Position numbers and translations under genes: made by a program. This document shows, piece after piece, positions 10,501-29,566 of a stretch of DNA of 32,000 nucleotides; the stretch's first letter is position 1; each line of letters opens with the position of its first letter. This stretch comes from Geotalea daltonii FRC-32 (GTDB lineage: Bacteria; Desulfobacterota; Desulfuromonadia; Geobacterales; Geobacteraceae), in contig NC_011979.1 in the NCBI RefSeq assembly GCF_000022265.1, forward strand, positions 3,660,001 to 3,692,000, read 5' to 3'. The notes under the pieces were generated by a model. It saw only the letters and a program-made list of their open reading frames with translations, was not told the DNA's origin and ran no database searches.

Positions 10501-13500
10501 CCTGGGGAGCGTCGCCAATGATGAGATCTACGGTAACTTCAACAATGACAAAATCGATGCCCGCGACTACGATGACTACCTTAATGGACAATACGGCGAT
10601 GATGCGCTCAGTGCCGGTTCGGGTCAGGACGACGTTTTCGGTGGTGATGGCGATGATGTGCTCGCCGGGGGACGCGGTGATGACTACTTGAGCGGTGGCT
10701 TCGGCAACGATGTCTACGCCTTCAACCGCGGCGATGGTCATGACTACATCGACAATTATCCCGGCACCGCCTACGGCGAAACCGACACCATTTCATTCGG
10801 CGTCGACATCCTCCCGGCCGATATCCGTGCAACGATTGACACCAGCACCGGCAATCTGGTGCTGAGCATAGCAGGAACAGACGATAACATTACCATCCCC
10901 TGGACCGACCCCAACAACGGCTTTGCCACCTTATCGGCAAGCGCAATAGCCAGGGTACAGTTCATCGATGCCGGCGGCAGCAACCGCATTTTCGATCTGG
11001 CAGGTCTCATCGAGGCCCACAAAGATGAACTGGTGGCGGCCGCCACGACCCCGGTCAGCCTCTTTGGAGCCGACGCAGACACCTTTGAGTTGACCGGCAC
11101 CGTCGATGCTGCCGGCTGGCAGTATGCGGTGGCCTATGCCCAGACTGGCGATCTTTTTGCCGAGCCCAACTACCTTTATGGTTCCTGGGGTAACGACACC
11201 ATCACCGGGCGTGCCGGTGACGACACCTTGGAAGGGGGTTACGGCGACGACCGCCTTGCCGGCGGTTCAGGCGACGACACCTACGCCTATTACCAGTGGG
11301 ACGGTAACGATACCATCGACGACGTCTCCACCCCGGGGGATCCTAACTCCCTTTTATTCGGCTACGGCATCACCCCTGATGACATCACCTTGAGTCACGA
11401 CAAGGGACAGGGTCAATTAATACTGAACATCTTGACTACCGGTGAGACCATACGTATCAATCACTTTGTCGCTGACGACCCCTATGGCCCCCATGCGGTG
11501 GAGTACTTCAAGTTCGATGACGGGACTGTGCTGACCTGGAGCCAGATGATCGACAAGGGCTTTGACATCATCGGCAGCTCCTGGGACGACGACCTGCCGG
11601 GCACTGCCACTACCGACAGAATTTCCGGCAACGAAGGAAACGATTTTATTGCCGCTGGAAGGGGCGATGACATTCTTGCCGGCGGTAATGGTGACGACTT
11701 CTATCACTACAACCCCGGCGACGGAATCGACCGTATCAATGATCTTTCTCTTCCCGGTGAAGAGAACACCCTTGCCTTCGGTGAAGGAATCGCTCTGCCC
11801 GATATAACCCAGCGGCTGACCTATCGTGATAATACATTGATCATCCGTGTCGGCGATGGTGGCGACGAAATTCATCTCAGCAACTTCGACCCCAATCAAG
11901 CCGACAGCGGCCCAAGAGCCATTCAGACTTTTACCTTTGCCGATGGGACCAGCATTACCTATGAGGATCTGGTCAAAAACACCTTCATTCTTCAGGGAGA
12001 TACCACCAATGATGCAATCCGCGGCACCAATCTGAGTGATCGCCTCTACGGGTACGAGGGAAGCGATTGGTTGGATGCAGGCGAAGGCAACGACACTCTT
12101 ACCAGTGGGACAGGCGATGATGAACTTGAGGGGGGCACAGGAAACGATGCCTATGTTTTCAATTTGGGCGACGGTGTTGATACCATTTCGGATTCTGCAA
12201 CTCTTGAGGAAGGCAACATTATTCACTTCGGCGCCGGCATTACCGCTGCCGATCTACGGACCAGGATTGACGGAAACACCCTGGTCATCGAGTACGGAAA
12301 CGGTGGCGACGCCATAATCCTCGATAATTACGATTACAGTGGATTAAACGGTTCACATGTGGTTGAACACATCGAATTCGCCGATGGCTCCATCATAAGG
12401 CTGGCCAGCCTCGTCGATCCCGGTACTGAAGGCAATGACCTAATCTTTGGCACTCCTTTCGATGACGTCATCAATGCCAAAGGTGGCGATGATGAGGTTT
12501 ACGGCCTTGCCGGCAATGATCATCTCTCAGGTGGAACAGGCAGCGACCGCCTGGACGGAGGCGACGATGAAGACATTATCGATGGTGGAGGGGGAAATGA
12601 CACGCTTACCGGGGGCAAAGATTTCGATACCTATCTCTTCAACATCGGCGATGGTTCCGATGTGATCGTCGATGCCGCAGACAAAGGAATCGGCAACATC
12701 GCGGCCTTCGGAACAGGAATTACCCGGAACGACGTCTCATTGACCGTGGATGGTAATGATCTGCTCATCACCTACGGCGGGTCCGGCGACCAGATCAGAG
12801 TGATAAACTACAATCCTACGGGCCGGCGCAGTGATTTGCCGGTAAGTGCCCTGCAGTTTGCCGATGGTTCTACCATGTACCTGCAGGAGCTTATAAATCA
12901 GGCTCCTGCAATAGGCACCTCACTGATCGATCAAAGTGCGACGGAAGACACGGCCTTCACCTTACGACTCCCCGATGATGCCTTCATAGATCCAGAAGGA
13001 CTGCCTATGAGTTACCGGTTGAGTGGTCCGGGCAATGCCCCCCTTCCCTCTTGGATCATTTTCAATCCGGTTACCCGTACTCTGAATGGGACACCCGGCA
13101 ATGGAGACGTCGGAATCCATGAGGTCGTAGTAACCGCGTATGACGACCTTGGCACCACGAGCCGGCGCTCTTTCTTCGTAACTGTTCAGAACACCAACGA
13201 TGCCCCGGTAGTTGTAGAAGCTATCCCAGCACAGAACGTACTGGAAGACAGTCCTTTCAGTTACCGGATACCTGCAGCAGCCTTCGACGACATAGACGCC
13301 GGTGATTCTCTGACACTGTCCGCAGCCCTGTCCGACGGAGCTCCGCTGCCGGCATGGCTGCAGTTCGACGCTGCCACCGGCACATTCAGCGGCACTCCGG
13401 GGAACGATGATGTGGGGAGCCTGAGCATAAACGTCACCGCCACAGACCTGGCCGGAGCTGCTGTCGACAATGCCTTCGACCTGACTGTGGAGAACGCCAA

Positions 13501-15238
13501 CGATGCCCCGGTTGCAGTGACGCCGCTGACGCCTCAAAATGCCGTCGAAGACCTGCCGTTCTCCTACAGCATTCCCGCCGATACCTTCAACGACATGGAC
13601 AAAGGTGATTCTCTGACACTTTCCGCCACCCTGGCAGATGGTTCGGCACTGCCCGCCTGGCTGCAGTTCGATGCTGCCACCGGGACCTTCACCGGCACCC
13701 CCGACAACAGCAATGTGGGAGCATATCAACTTTCGGTAACGGCCACCGACCTGGCTGGAGCCGCCGCCTCCACCGACCTTGGCCTCACCGTGGCAAATGT
13801 CAATGACGCGCCCGTTGTCAACGGCGTCGTCACCGACCAGGTTGCCCAGAGTGGTCACCTGGTCAGCTTCGCCATCCCCACCGGGCTTTTTGCGGATGTG
13901 GACAAGGGTGACATCCTCACCATCTCCGGGACAAACGGCGACGGCTCCCCCCTCCCCGCCTGGCTGACCTATGACCAGGCAAGCGGCACCATGTCCGGCA
14001 CCCCTGACAATTCCGCCATAGGCAGTCACACAATATGTTTGACCGCCACAGACCAAGCCGGAGCACAGGTCGATACCTCCTTCACCATGGAGGTACTGAG
14101 AAACAGGCTGCCAATAGCTGTTCCGGACACCGCCGAACTGGATGAAGACGGTCCCTCTCCCTCCGTGACCGGCAACGTCCTCGCCAACGACAGCGATCCG
14201 GATCTGGGAGACGTTCTCACCGTTGCAGACCCCGGGGTCAGGGAGGGGGAATACGGCTATCTGGGTCTCTCCGGCGACGGCAGGTACGGATACATACTGG
14301 ACAACCTGTCCGAAGACGTTCAGTCACTGGGGCGCTCAGCCCAGGTAACAGAACATTTCGACTACACCGTCACCGACGGTGAAGACGCGGTTCCCTCTTC
14401 CCTGGAAATAACCATCAGGGGAAAGAACGATGCCCCTATTCTAGAGGAGCATCTGGACGACCGGCGGATCAAAAAAGGGAAAGAATTCAGCTTCTCCATC
14501 GATTCCGACAGCTTCGAGGACGCTGACGAGGGCGATGCCCTCACCTACACCGCCACCTTGGCCGACGGCACTGCCCTGCCCGATTGGCTGAAATTCGACG
14601 GCACGACCGGCATCTTCTCCGGTACAGCGCCGAAAACTGCCGGTTACCTGGACATCAAGGTAACCGCCACCGACATGGTGGAAGCCACCGGCAGTACGGA
14701 AGGAAGCCTCTCCGTTTCCGATACCTTCGAATTGAGCTTCGGCAAGAGCAGGAAGGAGTCTGACGACCGTCGCAAAGACGATCACCGTGAAGACAAGCTG
14801 GACTGGATGAAAAAGGCCGGACCCGGCCATCGCGAGGATGAGCAAGGTAGCTTCAGGCCCGGCCATGACGATGACCATGACCATGGCCATGACCGCAGGC
14901 GCAGTGAGGATCATTCTGTCTCGAATGGCAACGATTACCTTGACAGGCAGCGGCTTGATGATTTCCTGCAGGACTTTGATCAGCCCTCTCCCGGCACTGA
15001 CCGCGAGATTGCCACACGCTGGCAGGCAGTAAGCGATGCGCTGAAAGAGGAGCTCGCGGACTTCGACAACGACTTCGGTAACCATCGCAAACAATCCGGC
15101 GACTTCTCCTTCATGAACTATGACCACGGATCCGGCTTTGGCAGGGGCATTGTCGATAGCAGTCTGTTGACCGCCGGCAGCGGGACCGAGCTTAAGGACT
15201 TCAAGGGTCTTAAGGAAGGGCTGCGGAGATTGGGATAA
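3524..15238 (+). CDS. Giant (3904 aa) RTX-family Ca-binding repeat protein with an N-terminal class-3 lipase/alpha-beta hydrolase domain and C-terminal cadherin-like repeats; presumed cargo of the flanking T1SS
   Basis: A single uninterrupted ORF. G-rich SD (TAGGGGGGAT) upstream and no N-terminal signal peptide. Contains dozens of GGxGxDxUx nonapeptides. It sits between HlyB-type and HlyD-type genes on the same strand. Domain sub-features are listed separately. Confidence 0.96.
   Translation: [3904 protein letters not shown]
5180..5350 (+). repeat. RTX nonapeptide block 1
   Basis: [57 protein letters not shown]. Confidence 0.85.
5780..7140 (+). repeat. RTX nonapeptide block 2 (about 450 aa of near-continuous GGxGxDxUx repeats)
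   Basis: Runs from [34 protein letters not shown] to [11 protein letters not shown]. Most 9-aa units fit the parallel beta-roll consensus. Confidence 0.9.
6495..7142 (+). repeat. Six tandem copies of a 108-bp (36-aa, four-nonapeptide) super-repeat inside RTX block 2
   Basis: The unit anchor GA(C/T)TAT(C/T)T(G/T)GATGG recurs every 108 nt (for example GATTAT at 6506 and 6722, GACTAT at 6614). Protein units follow [36 protein letters not shown]. Confidence 0.85.
7600..7960 (+). other. Cluster of EF-hand/dockerin-like DxDxDG Ca-binding loops
   Basis: [53 protein letters not shown]. Followed at about 8100-8770 by a non-repetitive, apparently helical segment (..[37 protein letters not shown]..). 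Confidence 0.6.
8846..12900 (+). repeat. Eight divergent modules, each with a few RTX nonapeptides followed by a haemolysin-type Ca-binding-protein-related beta domain
   Basis: Recurrent pattern: GNDTYxFxxGDGxDxIxD .. FGxGIxxxDL .. GxDLxIxxxxxxDxIxIxNxF .. IExxxF(A/D)DG(T/S). The F(A/I/D)DG anchor codons start at 9242, 9671, 10403, 10961, 11513, 11936, 12377 and 12857, all in frame. Confidence 0.8.
12900..14740 (+). repeat. Cadherin-like/dystroglycan-type Ig repeats: four tandem ~300-bp copies, a VCBS-like unit (~14100-14430), then a fifth copy
   Basis: Each copy has the pattern EDxxFxxxIPxxxFxDxDxGDxLTxSAxLxDGxxLPxWLxFDxxTGTFxGTPxNxxVG..VTATD..NDAP. The LPxWL anchors lie at about 13044, 13346, 13649, 13950 and 14575. 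Copies 2 and 3 are spaced exactly 303 nt apart and share long near-identical nucleotide runs. The VCBS-like unit reads [33 protein letters not shown]. Confidence 0.8.
14740..15238 (+). other. C-terminal charged, His/Asp-rich low-complexity tail ending in a putative T1SS secretion signal
   Basis: [90 protein letters not shown]. No RTX nonapeptides occur in the last ~800 aa. The signal assignment rests on position only. Confidence 0.4.
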
Positions 15239-15261: not shown

Positions 15262-15345
15262 ATGTTGGTGCAAAGCCATATCCCTTCTCGTTCGCCATGG
15301 TTTCTGCTCTTGAGAAGCCACAAAAAGATCGGATCATGTAATTGA
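15262..15345 (+). CDS. Cryptic 27-codon ORF (MLVQSHIPSRSPWFLLLRSHKKIGSCN) immediately upstream of the radical SAM gene; speculative
   Basis: Strong SD GAGGAGGG at 15254-15261, followed by clustered ATG(15262)/TTG/GTG(15268) starts. Its TGA stop (15343-15345) overlaps the TTG start (15342-15344) of the radical SAM gene, which has no SD of its own. Caveats: the SD/start region can also fold into a hairpin (15259-15268 with 15276-15284), and a 27-codon open frame arises easily by chance. Confidence 0.3.
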   Translation: MLVQSHIPSRSPWFLLLRSHKKIGSCN

Positions 15346-16130
15346 AAACTGCCACAAGTAGTCATACCAGCTTCATTCAGATAGAGATCACCACGATCTG
15401 CAACTTCGACTGTTTCTACTGCGCAGGGAGAAATATGCCCCAGCGACACATGGGCCTGGATCTCTTCAACACAATACTGGCATCACTACCACTAGAACCT
15501 TGCACAATCTCGCTTCAGGGAGAGGGAGAACCGACTCTTCATCCCCATTTCATTTCAATGGCAAAGCAGGTGATCGAAGCGGGCCATATTCCCTATACCA
15601 TTACCAACTGCAGCTGTCTTGATGCCAGTGTCATCGCCGAAGTTTTCCCCCAGATCGGCGTATCGCTGGACACGCTGGACCCGGGTGAAGCGCAGCGCCT
15701 TGGACGGCATGACCTGCGGCAGGTGGTGGAAAACCTGGACCGGCTTCTCCAAAGGATGGGGCCTGACCGAGTCATCCTGCATACGGTAAATTACGGACAG
15801 CAAATGGAACGATTTACCAAGCTCGTTGAGAGCAGAGGGTTTTCCCGTCATATCGTTCAACCCCTGCAAATGAAGGACGATTATCGGAAGCGGTACTGCA
15901 ACGTACCTGTGGGGCCGCAGGGATGGAAATCTGCCCATTACTTAGGCTGCCGCTATCTGCAGCAGCCGCTCATGCGTTACTTCGATGTGAACGGCCGGGA
16001 GATGCCCTGCTGTTATATCAAGGATGCATCCAAATTTGTGTCGACGGATCATGCGCGCAGCGTAATGGGCCAGGGCAGAGTGCCCGACTGCTGCGCAGGC
16101 TGCCGTGAAATTACCATGGGGCGATCATGA
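15342..16130 (+). CDS. Radical SAM enzyme with a C-terminal half-SPASM/Twitch-like Cys motif (262 aa)
   Basis: FIQIEITTICNFDCFYCAGR carries CxxxCxxC. The C-terminus has C-X14-G-X4-C (CRYLQQPLMRYFDVNGREMPC) and then CC-X2-C (DCCAGC). The only in-frame start upstream of the cluster motif is TTG at 15342, directly after a TAA. Its stop overlaps the next gene (ATGA 16127-16130). Confidence 0.85.
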   Translation: MKTATSSHTSFIQIEITTICNFDCFYCAGRNMPQRHMGLDLFNTILASLPLEPCTISLQGEGEPTLHPHFISMAKQVIEAGHIPYTITNCSCLDASVIAEVFPQIGVSLDTLDPGEAQRLGRHDLRQVVENLDRLLQRMGPDRVILHTVNYGQQMERFTKLVESRGFSRHIVQPLQMKDDYRKRYCNVPVGPQGWKSAHYLGCRYLQQPLMRYFDVNGREMPCCYIKDASKFVSTDHARSVMGQGRVPDCCAGCREITMGRS

Positions 16131-17356
16131 GCCGCTTCATGCTGGCATGGGAGCTTGGCGGCAACTATGGCCATCTGGGCAAACTGGTCCCTCTGACGCA
16201 TGCAATCAAAGACAAGGGACATGACGTGGCCCTTGCTGTAAGAGATCTTGCCGCACTGGGGAAATGCCTGGACCGCACGGCTGCGACCCTCCTGCAGGCA
16301 CCCATTGACTCACACCCGAGAAGAAAGTGCCAGCCGGTCAGTTTCGCCGATATCCTGGACGATGTGGGTTTCGGCAGTCCCGAGCGCCTTGATGGGCTGG
16401 TGCGTGGCTGGCACGGCCTCTTTGATCTCTACCGGCCCGAGGTAGTGGTGGCGGAATACGCGCCGTCAGCCGTATTTGCCGCCAGGCTGGCAGGCATACC
16501 CTGTCTGAGGATGGACACGGGCTTCGCCATTCCGCCGGACGTGAGCCCTTATCCCTGTTTCCGCCCCTGGCTCAAGCTGCGGCGGGAACAGCTGTTGGAA
16601 AAAGAGACGGGCATGCTGCAGGCCATAAACCAAGTTCGCGAAGACTATGGTTATTCTGCCCATGAGCATCTCTTTCAGGCAGTGCAGGCCGACCTGACCC
16701 TGCTGACAACGGTGCCGGAGCTTGATCACTACCCGGCGCGCAAGGGAGGGCGCCATATCGGCCCTCTGTTGAACTTGGATACAGGGCAGGATATCCCCTG
16801 GCCTGGCGGAAACGGACCGCGAATATTTGCCTATCTGCATCCCTTTCCAGGACTTGGACTGGTACTGGATGGACTCAGGAACTGCGGCGGTCAAACCATT
16901 GCCGTGGTTCCCGGTATCAGCCAGGAAATTTGCGACCGGTATAGGGGCAGCAAATTTTCGATCTCCGACCAACCGGCGACATTGCGGCATATTTTGCCCA
17001 AAGCGGAATTGGTCGTTTCCCATACCGGCCATGGCCTGACCTCGGCTGCACTGCTGGCAGGGGTGCCAACCTTGGCGATACCGACCCAGATCGAACAGAT
17101 GATGCTGATGAGAACTATCGAACGACTTGGTACCGGTACTGGTGTTACCCCCAATGCACTACGGACACATTTTCAGGAAATCCTGCAGAAGACCCTTGCC
17201 GATCAGGAGATTACCCACCGAACCCAAGAGCTTGCAGCCAAGTACAGTCGGTATGATGAACGGAGAACCTTGGCTCGTCTGATAACAACCATTGAGCGAC
17301 TGCCTGAAACCATCATAAACAGGCAGCCCGATAAACAGGAGAAAACATACAGATGA
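16127..17356 (+). CDS. GT-B fold glycosyltransferase, GT1/MGT (UDP-glycosyltransferase)-like (409 aa)
   Basis: N-terminus FMLAWELGGNYGHLGKLVPLTHAIKDKGHDVALAV (GT1 acceptor-domain pattern). The C-terminal donor-binding signature VVSHTGHGLTSAALLAGVPTLAIPTQIEQ resembles the UDPGT motif. ATGA overlaps at both ends (16127-16130 and 17353-17356). Confidence 0.82.
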   Translation: MSRFMLAWELGGNYGHLGKLVPLTHAIKDKGHDVALAVRDLAALGKCLDRTAATLLQAPIDSHPRRKCQPVSFADILDDVGFGSPERLDGLVRGWHGLFDLYRPEVVVAEYAPSAVFAARLAGIPCLRMDTGFAIPPDVSPYPCFRPWLKLRREQLLEKETGMLQAINQVREDYGYSAHEHLFQAVQADLTLLTTVPELDHYPARKGGRHIGPLLNLDTGQDIPWPGGNGPRIFAYLHPFPGLGLVLDGLRNCGGQTIAVVPGISQEICDRYRGSKFSISDQPATLRHILPKAELVVSHTGHGLTSAALLAGVPTLAIPTQIEQMMLMRTIERLGTGTGVTPNALRTHFQEILQKTLADQEITHRTQELAAKYSRYDERRTLARLITTIERLPETIINRQPDKQEKTYR

Positions 17357-18771
17357 ATGAGCAGCATTCAGCAAAACCTTCCGGCTTGGTGAGACTGTCC
17401 TCTAGGCTGTTCAATGCCGCTGAAACAGATTCGCTGGACTTTGCCCCCTCCATGGTTCAATTGCAGGAGAAGCCACCGGCACCGCTGGGACGGACCGTGT
17501 TGAAGGTTGTGGCGATACTGTTCTGTTGCGTCCTGCTGTGGGCTATTCTGGGGCGGCTGGATATCGTGGCGGTGGCGGAAGGCAAGCTGGTGCCGAAGAC
17601 TTACCTGAAGATCGTGCAGCCTTCTGAACAGGGAATCGTGGAGGATATCCTTGTCAAGGAGGGGCAGTCGGTTACCAAGGGGCAACTCCTGATGCGGATG
17701 GATGCGGTACTCTCCACTGCGGAAGGTAACTCCCTTACTTCTGAATTCCACCGCTTGCGGCTTGGCCTGCGCCGCATAGATGCAGAGCTGGCAGGCAGGC
17801 AGCTTACCCGCGAGAGTGGCGACCCGCCTGATCTGTTCGCCCAGGTATCGGCGCAATACCACACCAACCGTCAGGCCCAGCAGAGTGCCATCGATGAGCA
17901 ACAGAGCGTGCTGGAGCGTGCCCGCCAGGATATGGCTTCGGCCCGGGAAATCAAGGCAAAGCTTGAGCAGACACTGCCCCATTACCGTGAACAGGAAAGG
18001 GCCTACGAGGATCTTTTTAAAACAGGGACGGTTGCAAAGCTTCAGTTTTCTGAAAAGCAACGGGACCGGATCGAGAAGGAACATGACCTGAGAACCCAGG
18101 AGTTCACCATGAAAAGTAATCAGGCGCTGATGGCCCAGGCCCAGAAGAAGATGGCTCAGATCACGGCAGAAAACCGGCGCCAGTTGCAAATCGAACGGGT
18201 TGAAAGCATGGGACAGTTTGAGAAAATCAGGCAGGAGTTGGCCAAGCAGCAGCACCGTCACCAGTTACTGGAGCTGAGGGCACCGGACGACGGCGTTGTC
18301 AAGGATCTGGCCACACATACAACAGGTACGGTTGTGACGCCAGGGACCATTCTGATGACTTTGGTGCCCAAGGAAGAACCGCTGCAGGCCGAGGTATGGG
18401 TAAGCAACGAGGATATTGGTTTCGTGCGTCCCAATCAGCCGGTGAAGGTCAAGCTGTCCGCTTTCACCTTCCAGAAATACGGAATGCTTAACGGGAAAGT
18501 GGAACAGGTCAGCGCCGATTCCAGCGAAAACCAAGGCCAGACCGGAACGATCGATTCGACTACTTCAGCTCCGCCCAAGGACCTGAGCCGCCTGCGCTAC
18601 AAAACCCTGGTGACGCTCTCCACCCAGCAACTCATGGCAGATGGACAAAAGCACAAATTAACCCCCGGCATGCAGGTGTCGGCCGAGATAAAATTGGGCA
18701 CGAGATCGGTGGTGGAATACCTTTTCTCACCGGTAACAAAGGCGTTCCATGAGGCGGGGCGAGAACGGTAG
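17353..18771 (+). CDS. Type I secretion membrane fusion protein, HlyD family (472 aa)
   Basis: N-terminal cytoplasmic segment plus a single TM (VLKVVAILFCCVLLWAILG). Then DIVAVAEGKLVPKTYLKIVQPSEQGIVEDILVKEGQSVTKGQLLMRMD (lipoyl/barrel pattern as in HlyD), a long coiled-coil Q/E/R-rich middle, and a C-terminal beta-barrel ending in RSVVEYLFSPV. Confidence 0.94.
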   Translation: MNEQHSAKPSGLVRLSSRLFNAAETDSLDFAPSMVQLQEKPPAPLGRTVLKVVAILFCCVLLWAILGRLDIVAVAEGKLVPKTYLKIVQPSEQGIVEDILVKEGQSVTKGQLLMRMDAVLSTAEGNSLTSEFHRLRLGLRRIDAELAGRQLTRESGDPPDLFAQVSAQYHTNRQAQQSAIDEQQSVLERARQDMASAREIKAKLEQTLPHYREQERAYEDLFKTGTVAKLQFSEKQRDRIEKEHDLRTQEFTMKSNQALMAQAQKKMAQITAENRRQLQIERVESMGQFEKIRQELAKQQHRHQLLELRAPDDGVVKDLATHTTGTVVTPGTILMTLVPKEEPLQAEVWVSNEDIGFVRPNQPVKVKLSAFTFQKYGMLNGKVEQVSADSSENQGQTGTIDSTTSAPPKDLSRLRYKTLVTLSTQQLMADGQKHKLTPGMQVSAEIKLGTRSVVEYLFSPVTKAFHEAGRER

Positions 18772-19079: not shown

Positions 19080-19156
19080 TGGCGTCCCCGAGACGATTCG
19101 AACGTCCGACCCCTTCCTTAGGAGGGAAGTGCTCTATCCTGCTGAGCTACGGGGAC
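19080..19156 (-). tRNA. tRNA-Arg (anticodon CCU)
   Basis: 77 nt. The reverse complement reads GTCCCCGTAGCTCAGCAGGATAGAGCACTTCCCTCCTAAGGAAGGGGTCGGACGTTCGAATCGTCTCGGGGACGCCA. Acceptor stem GTCCCCG/CGGGGAC; D arm GCTC..GAGC; anticodon stem CTTCC/GGAAG with loop CTCCTAA (anticodon CCT); T arm GGACG-TTCGAAT-CGTCT; CCA is encoded. Confidence 0.95.
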
Positions 19157-19347: not shown

Positions 19348-20232
19348 CTATCTCTTAATTGCCAACGCGACCCCGGTTACGGTCACGAACATCCCCATCA
19401 GGGCGGTAACGCCCAGCTGTTCGTCGAAGAACAGGAAGGCCATCAACGAGGTAACCGGCGGGACGAGATAAAACAGGCTAGCCACCCGTGAGGCTTCGCC
19501 GCGCCGGATAAGGATATTGAGCAGGGTGATGGCCCCCAGCGACAGCACTACCACCAGCCAGGCCATGGCAAATATGAATGTGCCAGTCCAACGTACCTGC
19601 ATTGTTTCAAAGGTTGGCGCCAGGAGCGCCATTGTCAGCGCTGAGGCAGCGAATTGGATTACGCCGCCGCTCCGCAAATCCATAAGAGCGCAGTAGCGTT
19701 TCTGATAAAGTGTGCCTGCGGTGATGCCAAACAGGGCCATTATGGCCATGGATAGGCCCAGTGGGCTGCCCCCGACAAAAGAAATCTTGTCCATCAGCAC
19801 CTGTACTACGCCCACCAGACCGAGGCCAAAACCAACCCATTGCCTGGGGTACACCTTCTCCCCCAGTATTCGCGCAGCGACAACGGCGGTGAACAGCGGC
19901 TGCAACCCGGCGATGAGAGATACGATACCGGCAGGCACCCCCTGATAGATCGCGCAGAACACACCACCAATATAGAGGGCGTTGACCAGAACGCCGGATA
20001 CGGCAATGTGTAGTGCCTGAACTGGGCTGGCAGGCCAGGGTGCCCGCATCAGCAGGGCCATGGCCAGAAGCAGCAGCGTGACGAACCCGAACCGCCAGAG
20101 AAGAAAGGTGAAAGGCTCGGCGAACGGAAGGCCGAACTTTGCACCAATGAAACCGGTGCTCCAGAGGAGGACAAATAAAAAGGGCGCCGCGATCTCCCCA
20201 TAACCAGTTCTGTCTATGGTGGTATCCGTCAT
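19348..20232 (-). CDS. DMT-superfamily (EamA/RhaT-like) 10-TM permease (294 aa)
   Basis: Highly hydrophobic, with two similar halves and the typical EamA opening APFLFVLLWSTGFIGAKFGL. SD GGAGAG lies upstream of ATG 20232. Only 25 nt separate it from the upstream DctP-like gene. Confidence 0.88.
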   Translation of the reverse strand: MTDTTIDRTGYGEIAAPFLFVLLWSTGFIGAKFGLPFAEPFTFLLWRFGFVTLLLLAMALLMRAPWPASPVQALHIAVSGVLVNALYIGGVFCAIYQGVPAGIVSLIAGLQPLFTAVVAARILGEKVYPRQWVGFGLGLVGVVQVLMDKISFVGGSPLGLSMAIMALFGITAGTLYQKRYCALMDLRSGGVIQFAASALTMALLAPTFETMQVRWTGTFIFAMAWLVVVLSLGAITLLNILIRRGEASRVASLFYLVPPVTSLMAFLFFDEQLGVTALMGMFVTVTGVALAIKR

Positions 20233-20257: not shown

Positions 20258-21298
20258 TTAATCACGGTACTTTTTCAGCAGATCCTTGGCGTCTTTCAGA
20301 AGCGCCTTGCCGTTGGCCCCCTTTGCGCTAACCTCCTTGATCCATTCATCATCGACAGACTCGGTGGCCTTGGTCCATCTCTTGTATTCGGCATCGGTCA
20401 GGATGTTTATCTTATTCTTACGGTTCATGGCTACCTTGCGGGATACACTCGCCCCCTCGTCCCATATTTTGCCTACCCACCTGGAGACCTCACGACCGCT
20501 GTTGTTGTCGATGACCTTTTTCAGGTCGGCGGGCAAGCTGTTGTATTTGGACTGGTTCATGGCAAAGACAAAGATTGAGTTGGCATGTTTGGCCTGGCTC
20601 GGTGCGGTCTCAGTGTGGGTTTTGCAAACTTCCTGCAACTTCAGAGAAGTGGTTACCTCCCATGGGATGCTGACGCCATCCACCACCCCCTTGGCAATGG
20701 ATTCAGGCACTGCCGGCGCCGGCATTTGCACCGGCATCGCACCCAGGGCAGCCAGAGTCTTGGTACCGATGCGGCTGGCTGCACGTACCTTCAATCCCTT
20801 CAGGTCCTCCAATGTCTTGACGGTCTTGCTGCCAAAATGGAGCTGTGAACCGTCATGCACATGGGTGAAGATCAGCTTCACCCCCTTGAACTCATCCATC
20901 GCATTTTTCTGAACATAGTCCCACATGGCCTGGCTCGCTCGCTCGGAACTTTTGGCCATGAACGGCAGCTCGAAGACCTCAGATTTGGTGAACCGACCGG
21001 CCTGGTAGGTCGGCAAGCTCCAGACGATGTCGGCTATGCCGTCACGGGCCTGGTCGAAAAGTTGGGCAGGTGAACCTCCCAACTGCATGGAGGGGTAGAG
21101 TTGACACTTGAGCCTGCCGCCGGACTCCTTGCCGATCTTGTCACACCAGGGAATTAGGTTTTTCTGGTGGAATGTGGAACCTGGCGGCAGAAAATGGGCC
21201 ACTTTGAGGGTGACTGCTTCCGGGGCGGCAAAGCTGGTCCCGGCGCAAAGAGCTATGACGGTTGCGGTTAAGACCAGGCATCTTTTCGACTGCTTCAT
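20258..21298 (-). CDS. TRAP-type (DctP family) periplasmic solute-binding protein (346 aa)
   Basis: Signal peptide MKQSKRCLVLTATVIALCAGTSFAAPE. DctP-family pattern LKVAHFLPPGSTFHQKNLIPWCDKIGKESGGRLKCQLYPSMQLGG..QARDGIADIVW. SD AGGAGG lies 5 nt upstream of the ATG. Confidence 0.88.
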   Translation of the reverse strand: MKQSKRCLVLTATVIALCAGTSFAAPEAVTLKVAHFLPPGSTFHQKNLIPWCDKIGKESGGRLKCQLYPSMQLGGSPAQLFDQARDGIADIVWSLPTYQAGRFTKSEVFELPFMAKSSERASQAMWDYVQKNAMDEFKGVKLIFTHVHDGSQLHFGSKTVKTLEDLKGLKVRAASRIGTKTLAALGAMPVQMPAPAVPESIAKGVVDGVSIPWEVTTSLKLQEVCKTHTETAPSQAKHANSIFVFAMNQSKYNSLPADLKKVIDNNSGREVSRWVGKIWDEGASVSRKVAMNRKNKINILTDAEYKRWTKATESVDDEWIKEVSAKGANGKALLKDAKDLLKKYRD

Positions 21299-24813: not shown

Positions 24814-24903
24814 GGTAGCCTCTTCGTCATACTTCCTCTTTATAAGGTACTAACCGGTTCTGCGCTTGTAAAGGCCGCAGCAAATTAATTTCATAGCAAT
24901 GGA

Positions 24904-25689
24904 TCAAGGAGATGCATTGCCTCTTCCAGCGAATCTGTTGCCAACGATATCGATTCCTTTAGTAGCAGCCCCCGTGGTGACCAGGACTGGAGCTGCCTCC
25001 CCACTGCCATAGAAACCAAGGATCTGCCCCTCCTGCGGCCGTCCACCACCGTAAAAATCCCTTATTTTCAGGTAATAGGTACCGCCCTGATGAAGGCCAA
25101 GGCGATAATTCCCCTTACGATCGGTCTTTGTGGAGACAAAAAGAGGCCTGCCTTTCATTTCCCGATTGGCATAGGCCAGGATCAGCACTCCCTCTACAGG
25201 TTTCCCATCACGATCGGCCACCGTGCCTTCTATGGCTGTTACCCCCTTCTGGAGGACGCCTTTAAAGGCCACACCGTCTGTAAAAGTGCCAATGTCCGCT
25301 TTTTCACCGGCTTTGACAACATGTATGAATGGTTTCCCGTTTTCGTCTTTTTTCAGAAAGAAAACGTCCCCCGGAGACAGCGGCCCGACCCCTTTTCCTT
25401 TGAGGCGCTTCATTCCTCCCAGGAAATAACTGCCGGCAGGGGCCTGGACGGTAAATCTTCCATCACCTTCAATCGGAAATGTACCGTCAGGAACTCGCCA
25501 GTAGCTTTCCGGTAAAGGAGGAGGACCGTTGGTCACATTGAAGAGATGGACGTACCCGTCGCCGGCCAGATCTTTCTGCAGCCACATCCATCTGCCGGAC
25601 AGGGTACCGGTTGCTGGTTCCTGGGCAATTGTGACTGCAGCTATGACTACTACCACAGATAAAGTGATAACTTGAACCAGTTTTTTCAT
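24904..25689 (-). CDS. Secreted protein with two carboxypeptidase-regulatory-like (CarboxypepD_reg) beta-sandwich repeats (261 aa)
   Basis: Real start taken as ATG 25689 (SD AAAGGAGGTG). This gives the signal peptide MKKLVQVITLSVVVVIAAVTIAQEP. The second repeat reads IEGTVADRDGKPVEGVLILAY..TDRKGNYRLGLHQGGTYYLKIR. Its start overlaps the cbiO stop (ATGA 25686-25689). The 31-aa extension in the track is rejected. Confidence 0.72.
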   Translation of the reverse strand: MKKLVQVITLSVVVVIAAVTIAQEPATGTLSGRWMWLQKDLAGDGYVHLFNVTNGPPPLPESYWRVPDGTFPIEGDGRFTVQAPAGSYFLGGMKRLKGKGVGPLSPGDVFFLKKDENGKPFIHVVKAGEKADIGTFTDGVAFKGVLQKGVTAIEGTVADRDGKPVEGVLILAYANREMKGRPLFVSTKTDRKGNYRLGLHQGGTYYLKIRDFYGGGRPQEGQILGFYGSGEAAPVLVTTGAATKGIDIVGNRFAGRGNASP

Positions 25690-26477
25690 GGGAGCACCTC
25701 CTTTTTCAGCGTTGAACTCAGCTGGGGGAAACATCCACAAACGGGACATCCCTGCATGGAAAGAGGCTTTTCCAGTCTGCATCGTGTAAGCAGTGCGTCA
25801 TTTTGAAAAATTTCCAGGGTAGGACCGTCCGCCTGGACCTTTCCCTCGTTAAGAATGATGGTTCGCTCGCAGAGGCAGATGACCATGTCCAGATCATGAC
25901 TGGTGAAAATTTTCGTATGATGGAAGTCCCGGAGAAGCTCCATGAGCTGGCGTCTGGAAAATGGATCCAACCCACTGGTAGGCTCGTCCATAACAAGGAT
26001 ATCCGGAGACATGGACAAGACCGTGGCAATGGCTACCCTCTTTTTCTCCCCCCCCGAAAGGTGGTGCGGCGCCTTCTCCTGCAGGTGCAGTGCGCCCACG
26101 TGCTCCAGAGCACATTTGACCCTGGCATCGACTTCCGCAGCCGGAAGGCCGATATTCATTGGCCCAAAAGCAACATCATCGTAAACGGTTGGCATAAAGA
26201 GCTGGTCGTCGGGATCCTGGAAGATCATGCCGACGGTCCGGCGGATATTCGGCAGGGTCGCCTTGCTCATGGGGAAATCACCAATGCGGATCTCTCCGGC
26301 AGTGGGCGTCAGATAACCGTTCAGGTGCAGCAGGAGCGTTGATTTGCCGGCGCCATTGGCGCCGATGATGGCCACCGATTCTCCATGGGTGATGCGAAAG
26401 GAAACATCATCAAGGGCTGCCGTACCATCGGGATAGACGTGGCGAAGATTTTTAACTTCAACGATATGATGACTCAT
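25686..26477 (-). CDS. cbiO: ECF-type (CbiO/EcfA) transporter ATPase
   Basis: Start taken as ATG 26477 (MSHHIVEVKNLRHVYPDG), overlapping the cbiQ stop by ATGA. Walker A GANGAGKST; signature LSGGEKKRVAIA; Walker B ILVMDEPTSGLD. Confidence 0.9.
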   Translation of the reverse strand: MSHHIVEVKNLRHVYPDGTAALDDVSFRITHGESVAIIGANGAGKSTLLLHLNGYLTPTAGEIRIGDFPMSKATLPNIRRTVGMIFQDPDDQLFMPTVYDDVAFGPMNIGLPAAEVDARVKCALEHVGALHLQEKAPHHLSGGEKKRVAIATVLSMSPDILVMDEPTSGLDPFSRRQLMELLRDFHHTKIFTSHDLDMVICLCERTIILNEGKVQADGPTLEIFQNDALLTRCRLEKPLSMQGCPVCGCFPQLSSTLKKEVLP

Positions 26478-27286
26478 GTGAATAGTTCCGTCACCAACGA
26501 TCCCACAAGCAGTGACAGATTTTCGCACCGCAGGATGAAGAAAGAGGTAGACCAGCAGAGGAGGAAGGCGGTTTCCCTCCTGCCAAAGGTGAATTGGTGA
26601 CGGGTATTGAAGTTCCCTTCAAAGCCCCTGGCCAGCATTGCCATGTGAACCCTCTCTGCCCTCAGCCAGGTCCTCAGAAGAAGATGACCCAGAAGAGGAA
26701 TAAAGCTTTTCATGCCCAACCCATTTTTACCATTGGCCCGCAGCTCCCGCGCCCGGGACACCCGGCTCCCCTCTTCTGCCAGGACAAAAATATACCTGTA
26801 GAGGAAAAGCAGCTGTACAGCAAAGGCCCGCGGCATGCCAAGCTTCTCCATTGCCCGGCAGATGGACGGAAAACCGGTGACGCACAGAAGGATTAGCGCC
26901 GCACTTATGGTAAGCGCAGATCGTATTAAGACCGAAGCGAAGGAAATCCAGCCACCGCTTATGGTCAGAGGCCCGAACTCCATCATCGTGCCCCGGTCAA
27001 ACAGCGGATTGAAGAGGGCGACAATGACGGCAAAAGGGCAGATTATGGCTACTTTTCTGGCAATGTAGCCCACGGGAAGGTCGGCAAGTGCAATAATTAC
27101 AGCCGGAAAAATGAAAAAAGGGAATACTGCGGAAAGTTCGTACTTGCCGAAAGAAACCACAGTCACGACAAAGGCAAGGGTAACCAACACCTTGGCGCGC
27201 GGGTCGAGGCGGTGGATTGCCGTATCCCCCTTTGCCAGCAAGTCCAGTCGTTTGAAGTCAAGTAATGCACTATCGATGGAGAGCAT
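26474..27286 (-). CDS. cbiQ: ECF-type transporter transmembrane (T) component, CbiQ/EcfT family (270 aa)
   Basis: N-terminal HRLDPRAKV motif, multiple TMs, and the conserved Arg-containing coupling helices (..SRARELRANG.. and ..AMLARGFEG..). No recognisable SD precedes ATG 27286. Confidence 0.85.
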   Translation of the reverse strand: MLSIDSALLDFKRLDLLAKGDTAIHRLDPRAKVLVTLAFVVTVVSFGKYELSAVFPFFIFPAVIIALADLPVGYIARKVAIICPFAVIVALFNPLFDRGTMMEFGPLTISGGWISFASVLIRSALTISAALILLCVTGFPSICRAMEKLGMPRAFAVQLLFLYRYIFVLAEEGSRVSRARELRANGKNGLGMKSFIPLLGHLLLRTWLRAERVHMAMLARGFEGNFNTRHQFTFGRRETAFLLCWSTSFFILRCENLSLLVGSLVTELFT

Positions 27287-27320
27287 GTCGTTAGAAATAA
27301 TAGATGGTAGTGAAGTCCCT

Positions 27321-27354
27321 TAAATAGAAAATGAGGCTGGATAATCAGCCTCAT
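27321..27354 (-). terminator. Rho-independent terminator or attenuator between the 19-codon ORF and cbiQ
   Basis: The minus strand reads ATGAGGCTG-ATTATC-CAGCCTCAT (27354-27331), a perfect 9-bp stem, followed by TTTCTATTT. It lies 26 nt after the small-ORF stop and 45 nt before the cbiQ ATG. Confidence 0.7.
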
Positions 27355-27380
27355 CTCTTTTCAACTTCATTGAAAATGAA

Positions 27381-27440
27381 TTAACAGGGATGAACAATTG
27401 CACTGCCGACGACTTTGGGTGCTACATATGTCTTTTTCAT
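27381..27440 (-). CDS. Unannotated 19-aa ORF MKKTYVAPKVVGSAIVHPC downstream of the B12-radical SAM gene (candidate modified-peptide precursor or leader peptide)
   Basis: Read by hand on the minus strand. SD AGAGGAGG sits 7 nt before ATG 27440, and the stop TAA is at 27383-27381. It lies 55 nt after the radical SAM stop and is followed by the terminator hairpin. It is too short for the supplied track. Confidence 0.5.
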   Translation of the reverse strand: MKKTYVAPKVVGSAIVHPC

Positions 27441-27495
27441 CAGAGCGCCTCCTCTCTTACCGTTATGAAATCATTTGCTGTTCTGCAGTAAATAC

Positions 27496-29004
27496 TTATG
27501 GAATCGGTGCAATGGCTTGGTGCATGGCAGGAGACTTATGGCCCTTAACCGTCTTGATCAGTGCCTTCACCTCGGGTGGCATCTCTTTTCCCTCCTTCAT
27601 GGCTGCTTTGATCTGCCCTGCCAGATAGGAGTGGTTGATGAAGATGTCCAGCACCGCCAGCATGAAATCCTTCTTCCACCCTCTGATCTTATCCAGATTC
27701 TGGAACTTGTGCATGTAGAATTTCTGCGCCGCCTTGCCCAGTTCCTTTTCCAGTTCATCCACGGACATGTTTATCGGTTTGAGAACCGGTTCCACCAGAT
27801 TGTACTTGCGATAGTCTTTGGTTACCACATATTTTTCCAGTTGTGGATAGAGTTCGGCATAGGGCCAGGGAGCGATGGCCAGGAAAAAAGCCATGTCCGG
27901 ATTGTAATGCTTGGCCAGCTCTATGGTGGCGGCAATGGATTCAGGGGTGTCTTCAGGCATGCCCAGGACGAATGAGGTCTCTGAAACTATATCGGCATTA
28001 TTGATGATGTCGATTGCCAGTTTTGACTGTTCTACCTTCGTATCCTTCTTGAAGAGATCCAACGTTTCCTGGGAGCCGGCCTCAACCCCCACATAGATAT
28101 GCTCGACCCCTGCCTTTCGATACTTGTCCATGATATCTGCATCGCGGAGAATATCATCGACGCGGGTTTCCATCAGAAGCTTGACTCCCACCTTGCGCTC
28201 GATCATCAGATCGAGGATCCGCACCCAGCGATCCCTGTCAAAGGTGGGAATCTCGTCGGAAAGCATTGCGACTTCAACGCCGTATTTGTTGTTCAGCATC
28301 TCCAGTTCGGCAATGAAATTCTCCGGACTTCTGGCTCGCCAGGTCTGGGCCCAGAAAAGCTGCTGGGAGCAGAAAGAACATTTCTGCTGACAACCTCGCG
28401 ACGAGGAAACGATAGCCAGTCTGGCATTATTCTTGGCACGATAGGTATAAATAGGCCATTCCACCAGGTCCCAAGCCGCCTGAAGGGAGTCCAGATCCTG
28501 TATATAGGGAGCCTTCGGGGTAGCAATGACGCTGCCACCGGAATAAAATGCCAAGCCGGGAACGGCAGCAGGATCCTCACCGGCATTGAGGCAATTCAGA
28601 AGGGACGGCAGTGTCACCTCCCCTTCGCCACGTACCACATAATCAATTACGTTATGATCTGCGGACAATAATTCTTCATAGCAGAAGGTAGCGTGGACAT
28701 TGCCAATGACCGTAACAACCTGCGGATTCACTGATTTGGCAAGTCGAACAAGTTCGACGGCATGAACTATGGAAGCGGTGTAGGCAGTTGTTGCAACCAC
28801 ATCAGGGTTGAATGCCTCGATCCGTTCCTGGATCTCAGGCCATTTGTGCCACAACGACATGGCGTCATAGTAGTCGACTTCGTAGCCCTGCGCCCGCAGG
28901 GCACCGGCAATATAGACAAGGCCCACGTTCAGCCAGGTGCCTGCAGACTCAACAACCCCTGAATGATAAGGGGGGGTGATGAGTGCCACCCGTTTTATAG
29001 TCAT
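27496..29004 (-). CDS. B12-binding-domain radical SAM enzyme (class B, 502 aa)
   Basis: N-terminal B12-binding Rossmann pattern VALITPPYHSG..GLVYIAGALRAQGYEVDYYDA. Radical SAM motif SSSRGCQQKCSFCSQ (CxxxCxxC). C-terminal tail typical of this class (..DYRKYNLVEPVLKPINMSVDELEKEL..). SD AAAGGAG sits 6 nt upstream of ATG 29004. Confidence 0.9.
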   Translation of the reverse strand: MTIKRVALITPPYHSGVVESAGTWLNVGLVYIAGALRAQGYEVDYYDAMSLWHKWPEIQERIEAFNPDVVATTAYTASIVHAVELVRLAKSVNPQVVTVIGNVHATFCYEELLSADHNVIDYVVRGEGEVTLPSLLNCLNAGEDPAAVPGLAFYSGGSVIATPKAPYIQDLDSLQAAWDLVEWPIYTYRAKNNARLAIVSSSRGCQQKCSFCSQQLFWAQTWRARSPENFIAELEMLNNKYGVEVAMLSDEIPTFDRDRWVRILDLMIERKVGVKLLMETRVDDILRDADIMDKYRKAGVEHIYVGVEAGSQETLDLFKKDTKVEQSKLAIDIINNADIVSETSFVLGMPEDTPESIAATIELAKHYNPDMAFFLAIAPWPYAELYPQLEKYVVTKDYRKYNLVEPVLKPINMSVDELEKELGKAAQKFYMHKFQNLDKIRGWKKDFMLAVLDIFINHSYLAGQIKAAMKEGKEMPPEVKALIKTVKGHKSPAMHQAIAPIP

Positions 29005-29206: not shown

Positions 29207-29566
29207 TTAATGAAAGGTCATATCGAAAACAAACCAGTAACCTATGCCAAAGGCAATGAACAGGATGATATGCTTTACCAAGAGCATTCGACGGCGTGTT
29301 CTTTCCGAGTCGACCCCATAGTAATTGTCAACATAGGTAAAAGTGCGTCCTGAGCCTGTCGCCATGATAATAACACCAGCGGCAACGCTCTGCCAGAAGA
29401 AGAGGTGCTCCAACTGGTTTAGTATTCCGGTCACCATCGGCTGTCGACCGTGCATATCATGGAGTACGGCAATGGCAATTATGGCCGCCAGCCAATAACC
29501 AGCTGCAAAATCATGGATAAATCCATTGAGAACAACAAGAGATTTCTTAACCTGCACCATGACCAA
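29207..29566 (-). CDS. Small integral membrane protein (about 3 TM, 117-119 aa), function unknown
   Basis: Hydrophobic segments AAGYWLAAIIAIAVL, LFFWQSVAAGVIIMATG and LLVKHIILFIAFGIGYWFVF. Start is TTG 29566 or ATG 29560, with only a weak SD. Confidence 0.6.
   Translation of the reverse strand: MVMVQVKKSLVVLNGFIHDFAAGYWLAAIIAIAVLHDMHGRQPMVTGILNQLEHLFFWQSVAAGVIIMATGSGRTFTYVDNYYGVDSERTRRRMLLVKHIILFIAFGIGYWFVFDMTFH

Follow-up and report, generated by a model that had tools for sequence, protein, structure and literature searches.

We examined the 32,000-nucleotide stretch of the Geotalea daltonii FRC-32 genome (GCF_000022265.1, contig NC_011979.1, positions 3,660,001 to 3,692,000; hereafter the window) in which a B12-binding radical SAM gene is followed on the minus strand by a 19-codon open reading frame. 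The radical SAM ORF occupies 29004..27496 and encodes 502 residues, with its TAA stop at 27498-27496. A Shine-Dalgarno sequence, AGAGGAGG, lies at 27455-27448 and is followed by 7 nt and an ATG at 27440, 55 nt after the radical SAM stop, and the frame (27381..27440) reads MKKTYVAPKVVGSAIVHPC with a TAA stop at 27383-27381. Twenty-six nucleotides beyond this stop, the hairpin ATGAGGCTG-N6-CAGCCTCAT at 27354-27331 is followed by the T-run TTTTCTATTT, so that the entire element (27322..27354, with a stem of 9-10 bp) resembles an intrinsic terminator that probably acts as an intra-operon attenuator after the peptide gene. Downstream on the same strand are a CbiQ-family ECF transporter T component (26474..27286; TIGR02454, 140.9 bits against a cut-off of 111.8), a CbiO-family ECF/ABC ATPase (25686..26477; 218.5 bits against 211.8) whose start overlaps the cbiQ stop, and a secreted 261-residue protein, here termed c1 (24904..25689), that harbors a CarboxypepD_reg (transthyretin-like) domain (Pfam PF13620) and whose start overlaps the cbiO stop; overlapping start and stop codons were also present in the gene calls at loci L206/L207. 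No gene is called between the radical SAM gene and cbiQ on two public contigs carrying the identical enzyme, and an Rfam scan of the window identified only a tRNA, with no riboswitch or sRNA at the locus.

Each feature that the sequence-only reading had listed is present where it was placed, and the observation is therefore confirmed. The one weak element is the sigma-54-like site CGGCATGATAATTGCT at 29061-29046, which has two mismatches to TGGCAC-N5-TTGCW; sites of this quality occur 15 times in the window against 18.8 expected, and a matching site was found upstream of the radical SAM gene in only 4 of 78 related loci, at -57/-58 in L001 (Geotalea sp. SG265), L063 and L050, and as a different sequence at -114 in L034. 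The site is thus no better than chance.

To ask whether the 19-codon frame is a gene, we searched metagenomes with a DNA pattern derived from the peptide, which returned at least 120 loci and about 120 ORFs with 116 distinct 48-nt cores. The summed entropies of these cores were 9.4, 8.9 and 24.2 bits at codon positions 1, 2 and 3, indicating saturated third positions. Because the pattern fixed Y, P, G and HPC, the invariance of those residues in the metagenomic set is by construction, and only the 11 peptides from the eight enzyme- or c1-seeded loci that carry one test it independently; however, positions that the pattern left free were also conserved, with Val in 113 of 116, Ser in 89 of 116 and Ser/Ala in 110 of 116. 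Start codons were 106 ATG, 14 GTG and 3 TTG. A Shine-Dalgarno core was present in 118 of 119 ORFs (99%) against 16% of control positions, and a hairpin plus T-run followed 54 of 119 (45%) against 3.9% of control windows; the same element follows the peptide in L209, L031, L201, L202, L204 and L125. The window peptide matches the signature Y-x-x-P-x-[V/I]-V-G-x4-H-P-C-stop (17-23 residues with a Shine-Dalgarno sequence), which occurs once in the window against 0.00 expected. Orthologs of the window copy are found in L063 (identical), L209 (MKKKTYVKPKIVGRAAVHPC) and L031 (MKKRTYIKPRVVGSANVHPC), and comparison of the window with L031 revealed about 12 synonymous codon changes, including Ser AGT to TCC, against four replacements. 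The micro-ORF is therefore a true gene on sequence evidence, belonging to a large family of 17-21-residue peptides with the consensus M-K-K-(x0-3)-Y-x-[K/A]-P-[K/R]-[V/I]-V-G-[S/T]-[S/A]-x-V-H-P-C-stop.

This VHPC family is essentially invisible to existing annotation. NCBIfam and Pfam scans of the peptide padded to 20 residues, and of three other variants, returned only a weak match to the lasso-peptide model lasso_cyano (E = 0.063; residues 2-10 against model positions 1-9), and neither collection holds a model of the peptide. A 115-residue concatenation of six variants recovered only eight over-extended ORFs among 5.8 billion protein clusters, an exact look-up of ten 20-residue peptides among 15 billion proteins found none, and a scan of viral contigs with the peptide alignment gave no confirmed hit. 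Three other origins were considered and rejected: a mobile-element or MITE origin, as nucleotide sequences are saturated at synonymous sites; a lipoprotein signal peptide (MKK, hydrophobic stretch, Cys), as the Cys is the last residue and the hydrophobic stretch is too short; and selenocysteine read-through of the frequent TGA stop, as the downstream frames are not conserved.

The sequence-only reading had proposed that the peptide and the adjacent B12 radical SAM enzyme form a minimal enzyme-plus-substrate unit with SAIVHPC as the modified core, and had set conservation of this pairing as a test. The pairing fails in both directions: 78 of 80 orthologous or paralogous radical SAM loci lack the peptide, including L001 with an enzyme 91% identical, and about 117 of the 120 peptide loci lack that enzyme. 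The enzyme contains only B12-binding (109 bits) and Radical_SAM (78 bits) domains by Pfam, and its best family match is BchE, the anaerobic Mg-protoporphyrin IX monomethyl ester cyclase (TIGR02026), aligned over residues 5-457 at 403.1 bits, below the cut-off of 481.35; the enzyme is thus BchE-like, and the host lineage (Geobacteraceae) is not known to be phototrophic. Although it shares the B12-binding plus Radical_SAM architecture of the RiPP C-methyltransferases (TIGR03975, ApyD, PoyC-type), it scores far below the cut-offs of the peptide-modifying families, with 107.8 against 281.85 for TIGR03975, 136.8 against 750 for ApyD and 87 against 360 for the Mmp10-type TIGR04014. No leader-recognition domain was found in the enzyme or in its window neighbors, a 117-residue protein with no Pfam hit and a LuxE-like protein, and the nearest solved structures (TokK, AprD4, OxsB and CysS) act on small molecules. 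The enzyme has a recurrent gene context of its own, comprising CcsA-like proteins (29 loci), ResB (19), multihaem cytochromes (25), LuxE-like proteins (33) and a 118-residue protein (34), of which ResB, the CcsA-like proteins and the cytochromes handle haem.

In contrast, the only conserved enzymatic context of the peptide family is the GeoRSP cassette. In 12 peptide-seeded metagenomic loci the order is rSAM/SPASM gene, peptide, SPASM-only paralog and cysteine-desulfurase-family gene, with a PqqD-family chaperone gene just upstream and a YedE-type S/Se transporter and NosD-like beta-helix proteins beside the cassette. The rSAM/SPASM proteins score 443.8 and 447 bits on TIGR04303, above the cut-off of 400, and are named GeoRSP system radical SAM/SPASM protein by NCBI. 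The PqqD scores 87.9 on TIGR04302, below the cut-off of 100, but 56.2 on PQQ_PqqD, above 46, while the SPASM-only partner (TIGR04304) reaches only 92-112 bits against 300. Consistent with this arrangement, four of five enzyme-seeded loci, including the complete genome of Desulfuromonas versatilis, carry the peptide in the gap where no gene is called. The N-terminal Y-x-x-P-x-[V/I] segment, present in every family member found without the pattern, equals the [Y/W]xxPx[L/V/I/F/A] motif bound by PqqD-type recognition elements (PMC13381572), and in the window peptide only the glycine spacing is compressed relative to the YxxPxLxxxG form cited in the sequence-only reading.

The window copy is not itself located in such a cassette, as no GeoRSP gene lies in the 32 kb; two window ORFs of about the right size (20258-21298 and 19348-20232) proved to be a TRAP solute-binding protein and an EamA-type exporter. 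Instead, blastn of the window against L001 showed that homology stops at 27500 and resumes at 24892, defining a 2.6-kb presence/absence block (24893..27499) of peptide gene, hairpin, cbiQ, cbiO and c1 between the radical SAM stop codon and surE that is collinear in L209. The peptide is thus gained or lost with cbiQ-cbiO-c1 and not with the radical SAM enzyme. Full-length c1 homologs (30-43% identity) flank the peptide in at least 19 metagenomic loci, in most of them 36-180 nt away on the same strand, and all four loci seeded from c1 carry the peptide. An alignment of c1 homologs revealed no conserved Cys or His. At least 25 peptide genes, including one in the isolate Geomobilimonas luticola, start 21-215 nt after a gene with 3-34 CXXCH motifs, and in L125 the cytochrome TAA stop overlaps the Shine-Dalgarno sequence of the peptide. 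Most copies end an operon behind a cytochrome gene.

Taken together, we favor, with a probability of roughly 0.65, the interpretation that the 19-codon gene encodes a GeoRSP-type precursor peptide. The strong purifying selection on the amino acid sequence and the conserved GeoRSP context are shown directly by the analysis, whereas translation, binding, modification, the chemistry and the role are inferred from sequence and gene context alone. In this view the Y-x-x-P-x-[V/I] segment would be bound by the PqqD chaperone and presented to the rSAM/SPASM enzyme, which would modify the invariant C-terminal V-H-P-C, likely through a Cys-centered crosslink or oxidative C-terminal chemistry by analogy with MftC and PqqE, while the hairpin would let the short precursor transcript accumulate over the downstream genes. 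The window copy is a satellite, with Tyr at position 5-7 and an S-A-x-V-H-P-C tail, that like about 90% of the family has no adjacent maturase and is assumed to be matured in trans; such satellites sit directly behind genes for giant multihaem cytochromes or other giant secreted proteins, or beside CarboxypepD_reg proteins of about 260 residues. A caution is that all 12 cassette-embedded peptides are of the 18-residue SSNVHPC subtype and the S-A-x-VHPC subtype was never seen inside a cassette, making it possible that the latter has another fate or acts unmodified. The sequence-only interpretation is accordingly supported in part: the ORF is a genuine, selected, RiPP-precursor-like micro-gene with a plausible VHPC core, but its assignment to the B12 radical SAM enzyme is not supported.

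Comparison with characterized systems yields analogies and not membership. Like the mycofactocin (MftA/MftB/MftC) and PQQ (PqqA/PqqD/PqqE) systems, the cassette combines a tiny precursor with an invariant C-terminal part, a discrete PqqD-type chaperone and an rSAM/SPASM enzyme, but the enzyme scores 192-204 bits on MftC (TIGR03962) and 122-126 on PqqE (TIGR02109), below the cut-offs of 265 and 381, and scores equally well on the haem-pathway enzymes AhbD and NirJ. The modified residues also differ, being V-H-P-C here by inference, G-V-Y in MftA and E/Y in PqqA, and many satellite precursor genes lie behind cytochrome genes. Similarity to lasso-peptide and LPP leader recognition by discrete RRE (PqqD-like) proteins extends to the leader motif and to weak matches on both sides, with the PqqD hitting lasso PqqD models; however, there is no lasso cyclase, protease or kinase, the putative core is only about seven residues, and the Thr at position -2 of lasso leaders (PMC10368454) is absent.

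Among the alternatives, it is possible but unlikely that the peptide acts unmodified, for example as an accessory or assembly factor or a His/Cys ligand-donating partner of the giant cytochromes and the CarboxypepD_reg/NosD-like secreted proteins beside which it is encoded, its place in the cassette reflecting shared function. The scarcity of adjacent maturases, the tight coupling to giant cytochrome genes and the absence of the satellite subtype from cassettes are consistent with this possibility, but it is difficult to reconcile with the position exactly between the rSAM/SPASM gene and its paralog, next to a PqqD chaperone, in 16 loci, with the RRE-type leader motif, with the absence of a signal peptide although the neighbors are secreted, and with the lack of a conserved Cys or His in c1 that would suggest a shared metal or haem site. 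Slightly less likely is the original pairing with the B12 radical SAM enzyme, although a tailoring role is not excluded: the order radical SAM then peptide recurs in two enzyme lineages (the window, L063 and L209, with enzymes 90-95% identical, and independently L031 at 77.6%), L168 has the enzyme 1.4 kb downstream of a peptide gene, and B12 radical SAM families do include peptide modifiers, to two of which (ApyD and TIGR03975) the enzyme gives weak hits. A regulatory leader peptide controlling cbiQ-cbiO, the alternative offered by the sequence-only reading, is rejected despite the four Val in 19 residues and the hairpin only about 45 nt before the cbiQ start, because selection acts on the amino acids, the hairpin starts 26 nt past the stop and needs no alternative pairing with the ORF, no Rfam element is present, the next gene in L031 is convergent and in many other loci no co-directional gene follows, and most copies end an operon or, in 16 cases, lie inside a cassette.

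GeoRSP is a curated but uncharacterized system, and literature searches for it, its NCBIfam models, the VHPC peptide, PqqD and SPASM proteins in Geobacter, and BchE in Geobacter returned nothing relevant, with no substrate reported in the libraries searched. For this window, the result corrects an attractive enzyme-substrate assignment that the evidence does not support. The conserved 18-codon gene lying uncalled in the middle of the cassette supplies a concrete substrate candidate, and thereby makes the chemistry of the enzyme directly testable. A more speculative and on balance unlikely extension is that the VHPC peptides are precursors of an as yet unknown peptide-derived cofactor or small redox, sulfur or haem-linked product, made by the cassette and required by, or delivered to, the giant extracellular multihaem cytochromes and their beta-helix and transthyretin-like accessory proteins in Geobacter and Desulfuromonas, which would make it a missing component of extracellular electron transfer encoded by genes too short to have been annotated. 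The satellite copies are tied to the giant multihaem cytochrome operons of metal-reducing Desulfuromonadia, and if the peptide or its product serves those cytochromes, it bears on how the extracellular electron-transfer machinery is built.

On the minus strand, the B12-binding radical SAM open reading frame runs 29004..27496 and encodes a protein of 502 aa in which Pfam identifies the B12-binding (109 bits) and Radical_SAM (78 bits) domains. Fifty-five nucleotides separate its TAA stop codon from the micro-ORF, within which interval AGAGGAGG (27455-27448) is followed by 7 nt and then by an ATG at 27440, and the resulting frame reads MKKTYVAPKVVGSAIVHPC and ends at a TAA (27383-27381). A hairpin of 9-10 bp at 27354-27331 with a T-run follows 26 nt later, and cbiQ (26474-27286) and cbiO, both of which pass their NCBIfam cut-offs, lie beyond it. 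In two public contigs that encode the identical enzyme, no gene is called in the gap. The arrangement described by the sequence-only reading, a radical SAM gene followed by a 19-codon frame with its own Shine-Dalgarno sequence and terminator-like hairpin, is therefore confirmed. The sigma-54-like promoter that it also placed upstream of the enzyme (29061-29046) is a weak claim, as this site has two mismatches to the consensus, such sites are no more frequent than chance (15 in the window against 18.8 expected), and a matching site was found upstream of the radical SAM gene in only 4 of 78 related loci.

The proposal that the enzyme and the micro-ORF form an enzyme-substrate pair led us to ask whether the two genes occur together elsewhere. 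A scan of one genome per species identified 113 relatives of the enzyme, of which the best 80 (60-95% identical, mostly from Geobacteraceae) were retained as loci L001-L080, and a six-frame search recovered the peptide in only two of them: L063 from Geotalea toluenoxydans, in which the peptide is identical, and L031 from Geobacter sp. H7geo, in which the enzyme is 77.6% identical. In contrast, L001 from Geotalea sp. SG265 encodes an enzyme that is 91% identical yet proceeds directly from the radical SAM gene through a terminator to surE. The best family match of the enzyme is the tetrapyrrole cyclase BchE, at 403 bits against a cut-off of 481, while models of peptide-modifying B12 radical SAM enzymes score far below their cut-offs (ApyD, 137 against 750; TIGR03975, 108 against 282), and the nearest solved structures are distant and act on small molecules. 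The interpretation offered by the sequence-only reading is thus only partly supported, in that the ORF is a genuine gene with a precursor-like leader motif (see below) but its pairing with the neighboring enzyme is not supported.

Across the 80 loci the enzyme instead has recurrent neighbors of its own, comprising a 118-aa protein with no family hit (34 loci), a LuxE-like adenylating enzyme (33 loci), a CcsA-like cytochrome-c assembly protein (29 loci), multihaem cytochromes (25 loci), a tandem paralogue of the enzyme (21 loci) and ResB (19 loci). The enzyme therefore has its own haem- and cytochrome-flavored context, suggesting an uncharacterized haem- or cytochrome-related role for this BchE-like family of Geobacteraceae. 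The window carries the same set, with a 117-aa protein directly upstream of the radical SAM gene (29207-29560, minus strand), a divergent LuxE-like gene (PF04443; 30143-31612, plus strand) and the start of a second B12 radical SAM gene (31678-31995, minus strand), which on L206, a public contig with the identical enzyme, is at least 445 aa. In another Geobacter lineage, represented by L031 (5842-7478, minus strand) and also by L038, L048 and L077, the CbiQ-like and ABC-ATPase genes lie convergent to the radical SAM gene and the ATPase, of 380 aa, ends in a CRLEKPFSMQGCP[VL]C tail; only L031 has the peptide gene in between.

The micro-ORF is nevertheless real. A codon-by-codon comparison of the window with L031 gives about 12 synonymous differences, including a Ser AGT to TCC switch, against 4 replacements and one codon indel, and L031 also retains a Shine-Dalgarno sequence and a hairpin, with the next gene convergent. 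To assess the wider family, we scanned metagenome contigs for the pattern Y-x-x-P-x-[V/I/M]-[V/I/M]-G-x4-H-P-C-stop and recovered at least 120 loci, of whose hits only 3 were chance matches. The remaining 123 ORFs, which were ascertained with a pattern that fixes Y, P, G and HPC, comprise 116 distinct cores and 101 distinct peptides of 17-23 aa and begin with 106 ATG, 14 GTG and 3 TTG codons. A Shine-Dalgarno core is present in 118 of 119, against 16% of control positions, and a hairpin plus T-run follows within 80 nt in 45%, against 3.9% of control windows. Summed entropy at codon positions 1, 2 and 3 is 9.4, 8.9 and 24.2 bits, respectively, and positions that the pattern left free are conserved at the protein level, with Val16 in 113 of 116, Ser13 in 89 of 116 and Ser/Ala14 in 110 of 116. 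This is purifying selection on a peptide and not conservation of an RNA or of a mobile element.

A tblastn search with the window enzyme against the 120 peptide loci found it near only L148, L168 and, at 27% identity, L188. Clustering of the neighboring ORFs revealed three contexts. In the first, a GeoRSP cassette found at 12 loci, the gene order is a YedE-type S/Se transporter (TIGR04112, 414 bits), a PqqD-family chaperone (TIGR04302, 87.9 bits; PQQ_PqqD, 56 bits, above its cut-off of 46), the GeoRSP radical SAM/SPASM protein (TIGR04303, 444-447 bits against a cut-off of 400), the peptide gene, a SPASM-only paralogue (TIGR04304, 92-112 bits, below its cut-off), a cysteine-desulfurase-family protein, PhoH2 and TsaD. 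In the second, at about 50 loci, the peptide gene lies 21-215 nt downstream of a giant gene for a secreted protein on the same strand, and most of these giant genes encode multihaem c-type cytochromes with 3-34 CXXCH motifs. These cytochromes reach 2846 aa and are followed by the micro-gene and a terminator in the peptide loci L082, L086, L090, L114, L118, L125, L133, L171, L197 and others, as well as at 1-4680 of L208 (Geomobilimonas luticola); in L090 and L118 the unit of cytochrome then peptide is repeated in tandem, and in L125 the cytochrome stop codon overlaps the Shine-Dalgarno sequence of the peptide. In the third, at 36 loci, the neighbors are secreted CarboxypepD_reg proteins of about 260 aa, here called c1, and NosD-like beta-helix proteins.

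These associations were next sampled independently from the partner side. Homologues of the GeoRSP enzyme are named 'GeoRSP system radical SAM/SPASM protein' by NCBI and JGI, with 552 hits at E ≤ 1e-40, and of five contexts examined, four carry the peptide in the gap between the radical SAM and SPASM genes, which is uncalled in all four. These are L201 from Desulfuromonas versatilis (AP024355.1), with MKKYMKPRVVGSSNVHPC followed by a hairpin and seven T, and the metagenome-derived L202, L204 and L205, with MKAYLKPRVVGSSNVHPC, MKKYMKPRVVGSSNVHPC and MKKYMKPRITGSSNVHPC, respectively, whereas L203 from Geothermobacter has none. Loci L201-L205 share a highly conserved extended gene order, consisting of a ~155-aa protein, two NosD-like beta-helix proteins, a PhnD-like binding protein, a 180-aa protein, the YedE S/Se transporter, PqqD, the radical SAM/SPASM protein, the peptide gene, the SPASM-only protein, a cysteine desulfurase / SclA-like protein, a ~92-aa protein, PhoH2 and TsaD, a neighborhood with a sulfur/selenium flavor.

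The c1 protein of the window has 36 homologues, and all four contexts examined carry the peptide. In L208 the arrangement is giant cytochrome, peptide, c1, peptide, NosD-like, CarboxypepD_reg, OpuAC-like and ResB-like, while the metagenome-derived L210 has two peptide copies and the metagenome-derived L211 has one variant peptide plus a radical SAM/SPASM gene. The fourth, the metagenome-derived L209, reproduces the arrangement of the window, with a 117-aa protein, the B12 radical SAM enzyme (90.6% identical), the peptide MKKKTYVKPKIVGRAAVHPC, CbiQ, CbiO, c1 and then SurE. Divergent peptide variants exist at L210 (1261-1300 and 4757-4796) and L211 (~5900-5945), namely MKKA[RI]YARPRIIGSVCVHPC, with a second Cys, and VKRQYVRPKIVAAAVVHPC, which has no Gly and a GTG start, indicating that the family is wider than the search pattern.

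A blastn comparison with L001 shows that window 27499-24893 is a clean 2.6-kb presence/absence block between the radical SAM stop codon and surE, which holds the peptide gene, the hairpin, cbiQ, cbiO and c1, the last three with overlapping stop and start codons. The peptide gene therefore travels with the transporter-plus-c1 unit and not with the enzyme. No GeoRSP gene and no multihaem cytochrome lies in the 32 kb. Moreover, all 12 cassette peptides are of the 18-aa MKKYxKPxVVGSSNVHPC type, whereas the window peptide belongs to the longer S-A-x-VHPC type, which is seen beside c1 and giant proteins but was never seen inside a cassette. Elsewhere in the window, the plus strand carries a type I secretion locus (128-2092, 3524-15238, 15342-16130, 16127-17356 and 17353-18771) with an ABC exporter, a 3904-aa RTX/He_PIG/cadherin-like giant protein and a HlyD-family protein, in which a 262-aa radical SAM protein and a glycosyltransferase are inserted between the giant gene and the HlyD gene, and a tRNA gene (19083-19156, minus strand) is the only Rfam match (62.7 bits).

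Among the alternatives, a role for the peptide as an unmodified small protein survives best, although it appears unlikely. Pairing with the B12 radical SAM enzyme is slightly less likely still, but is not excluded, as the order of radical SAM gene then peptide recurs in two enzyme lineages and both families frequent cytochrome neighborhoods. The possibility that the ORF is an attenuator is contradicted by selection on the amino acids and by the family contexts.

No NCBIfam or Pfam model matches the peptide, ten exact sequences are absent from 15 billion proteins, only 8 over-extended ORFs hold the motif among 5.8 billion clusters, and no paper mentioning GeoRSP or the motif was found in the literature searched. 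A PqqD-dependent peptide modified by a radical SAM/SPASM enzyme is a known kind of system; what is new here is this family, together with its extreme shortness, its invariant VHPC end and its satellite copies behind giant cytochrome genes.

Our analysis establishes that the micro-ORF is a real gene, that its family has a conserved placement in the GeoRSP cassette, that a PqqD-family chaperone is present there and that the leader is Y-x-x-P-x-[V/I], the motif that discrete RRE/PqqD proteins bind in lasso and LPP leaders, where YxxP is essential for complex formation (PMC13381572). The remainder, including translation and modification of the peptide, is inferred from sequence and gene context alone. 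In this view, PqqD would bind the N-terminal half, the radical SAM/SPASM enzyme would modify the invariant V-H-P-C end, and the hairpin would enrich the precursor transcript. The enzyme scores 192-220 bits on MftC, AhbD and NirJ alike, and a Cys-centered crosslink or oxidative C-terminal chemistry is most likely only by analogy with MftC, PqqE and thioether-forming SPASM enzymes. Satellite copies such as that of the window would be processed in trans, and their product would serve the secreted proteins with which they are encoded.
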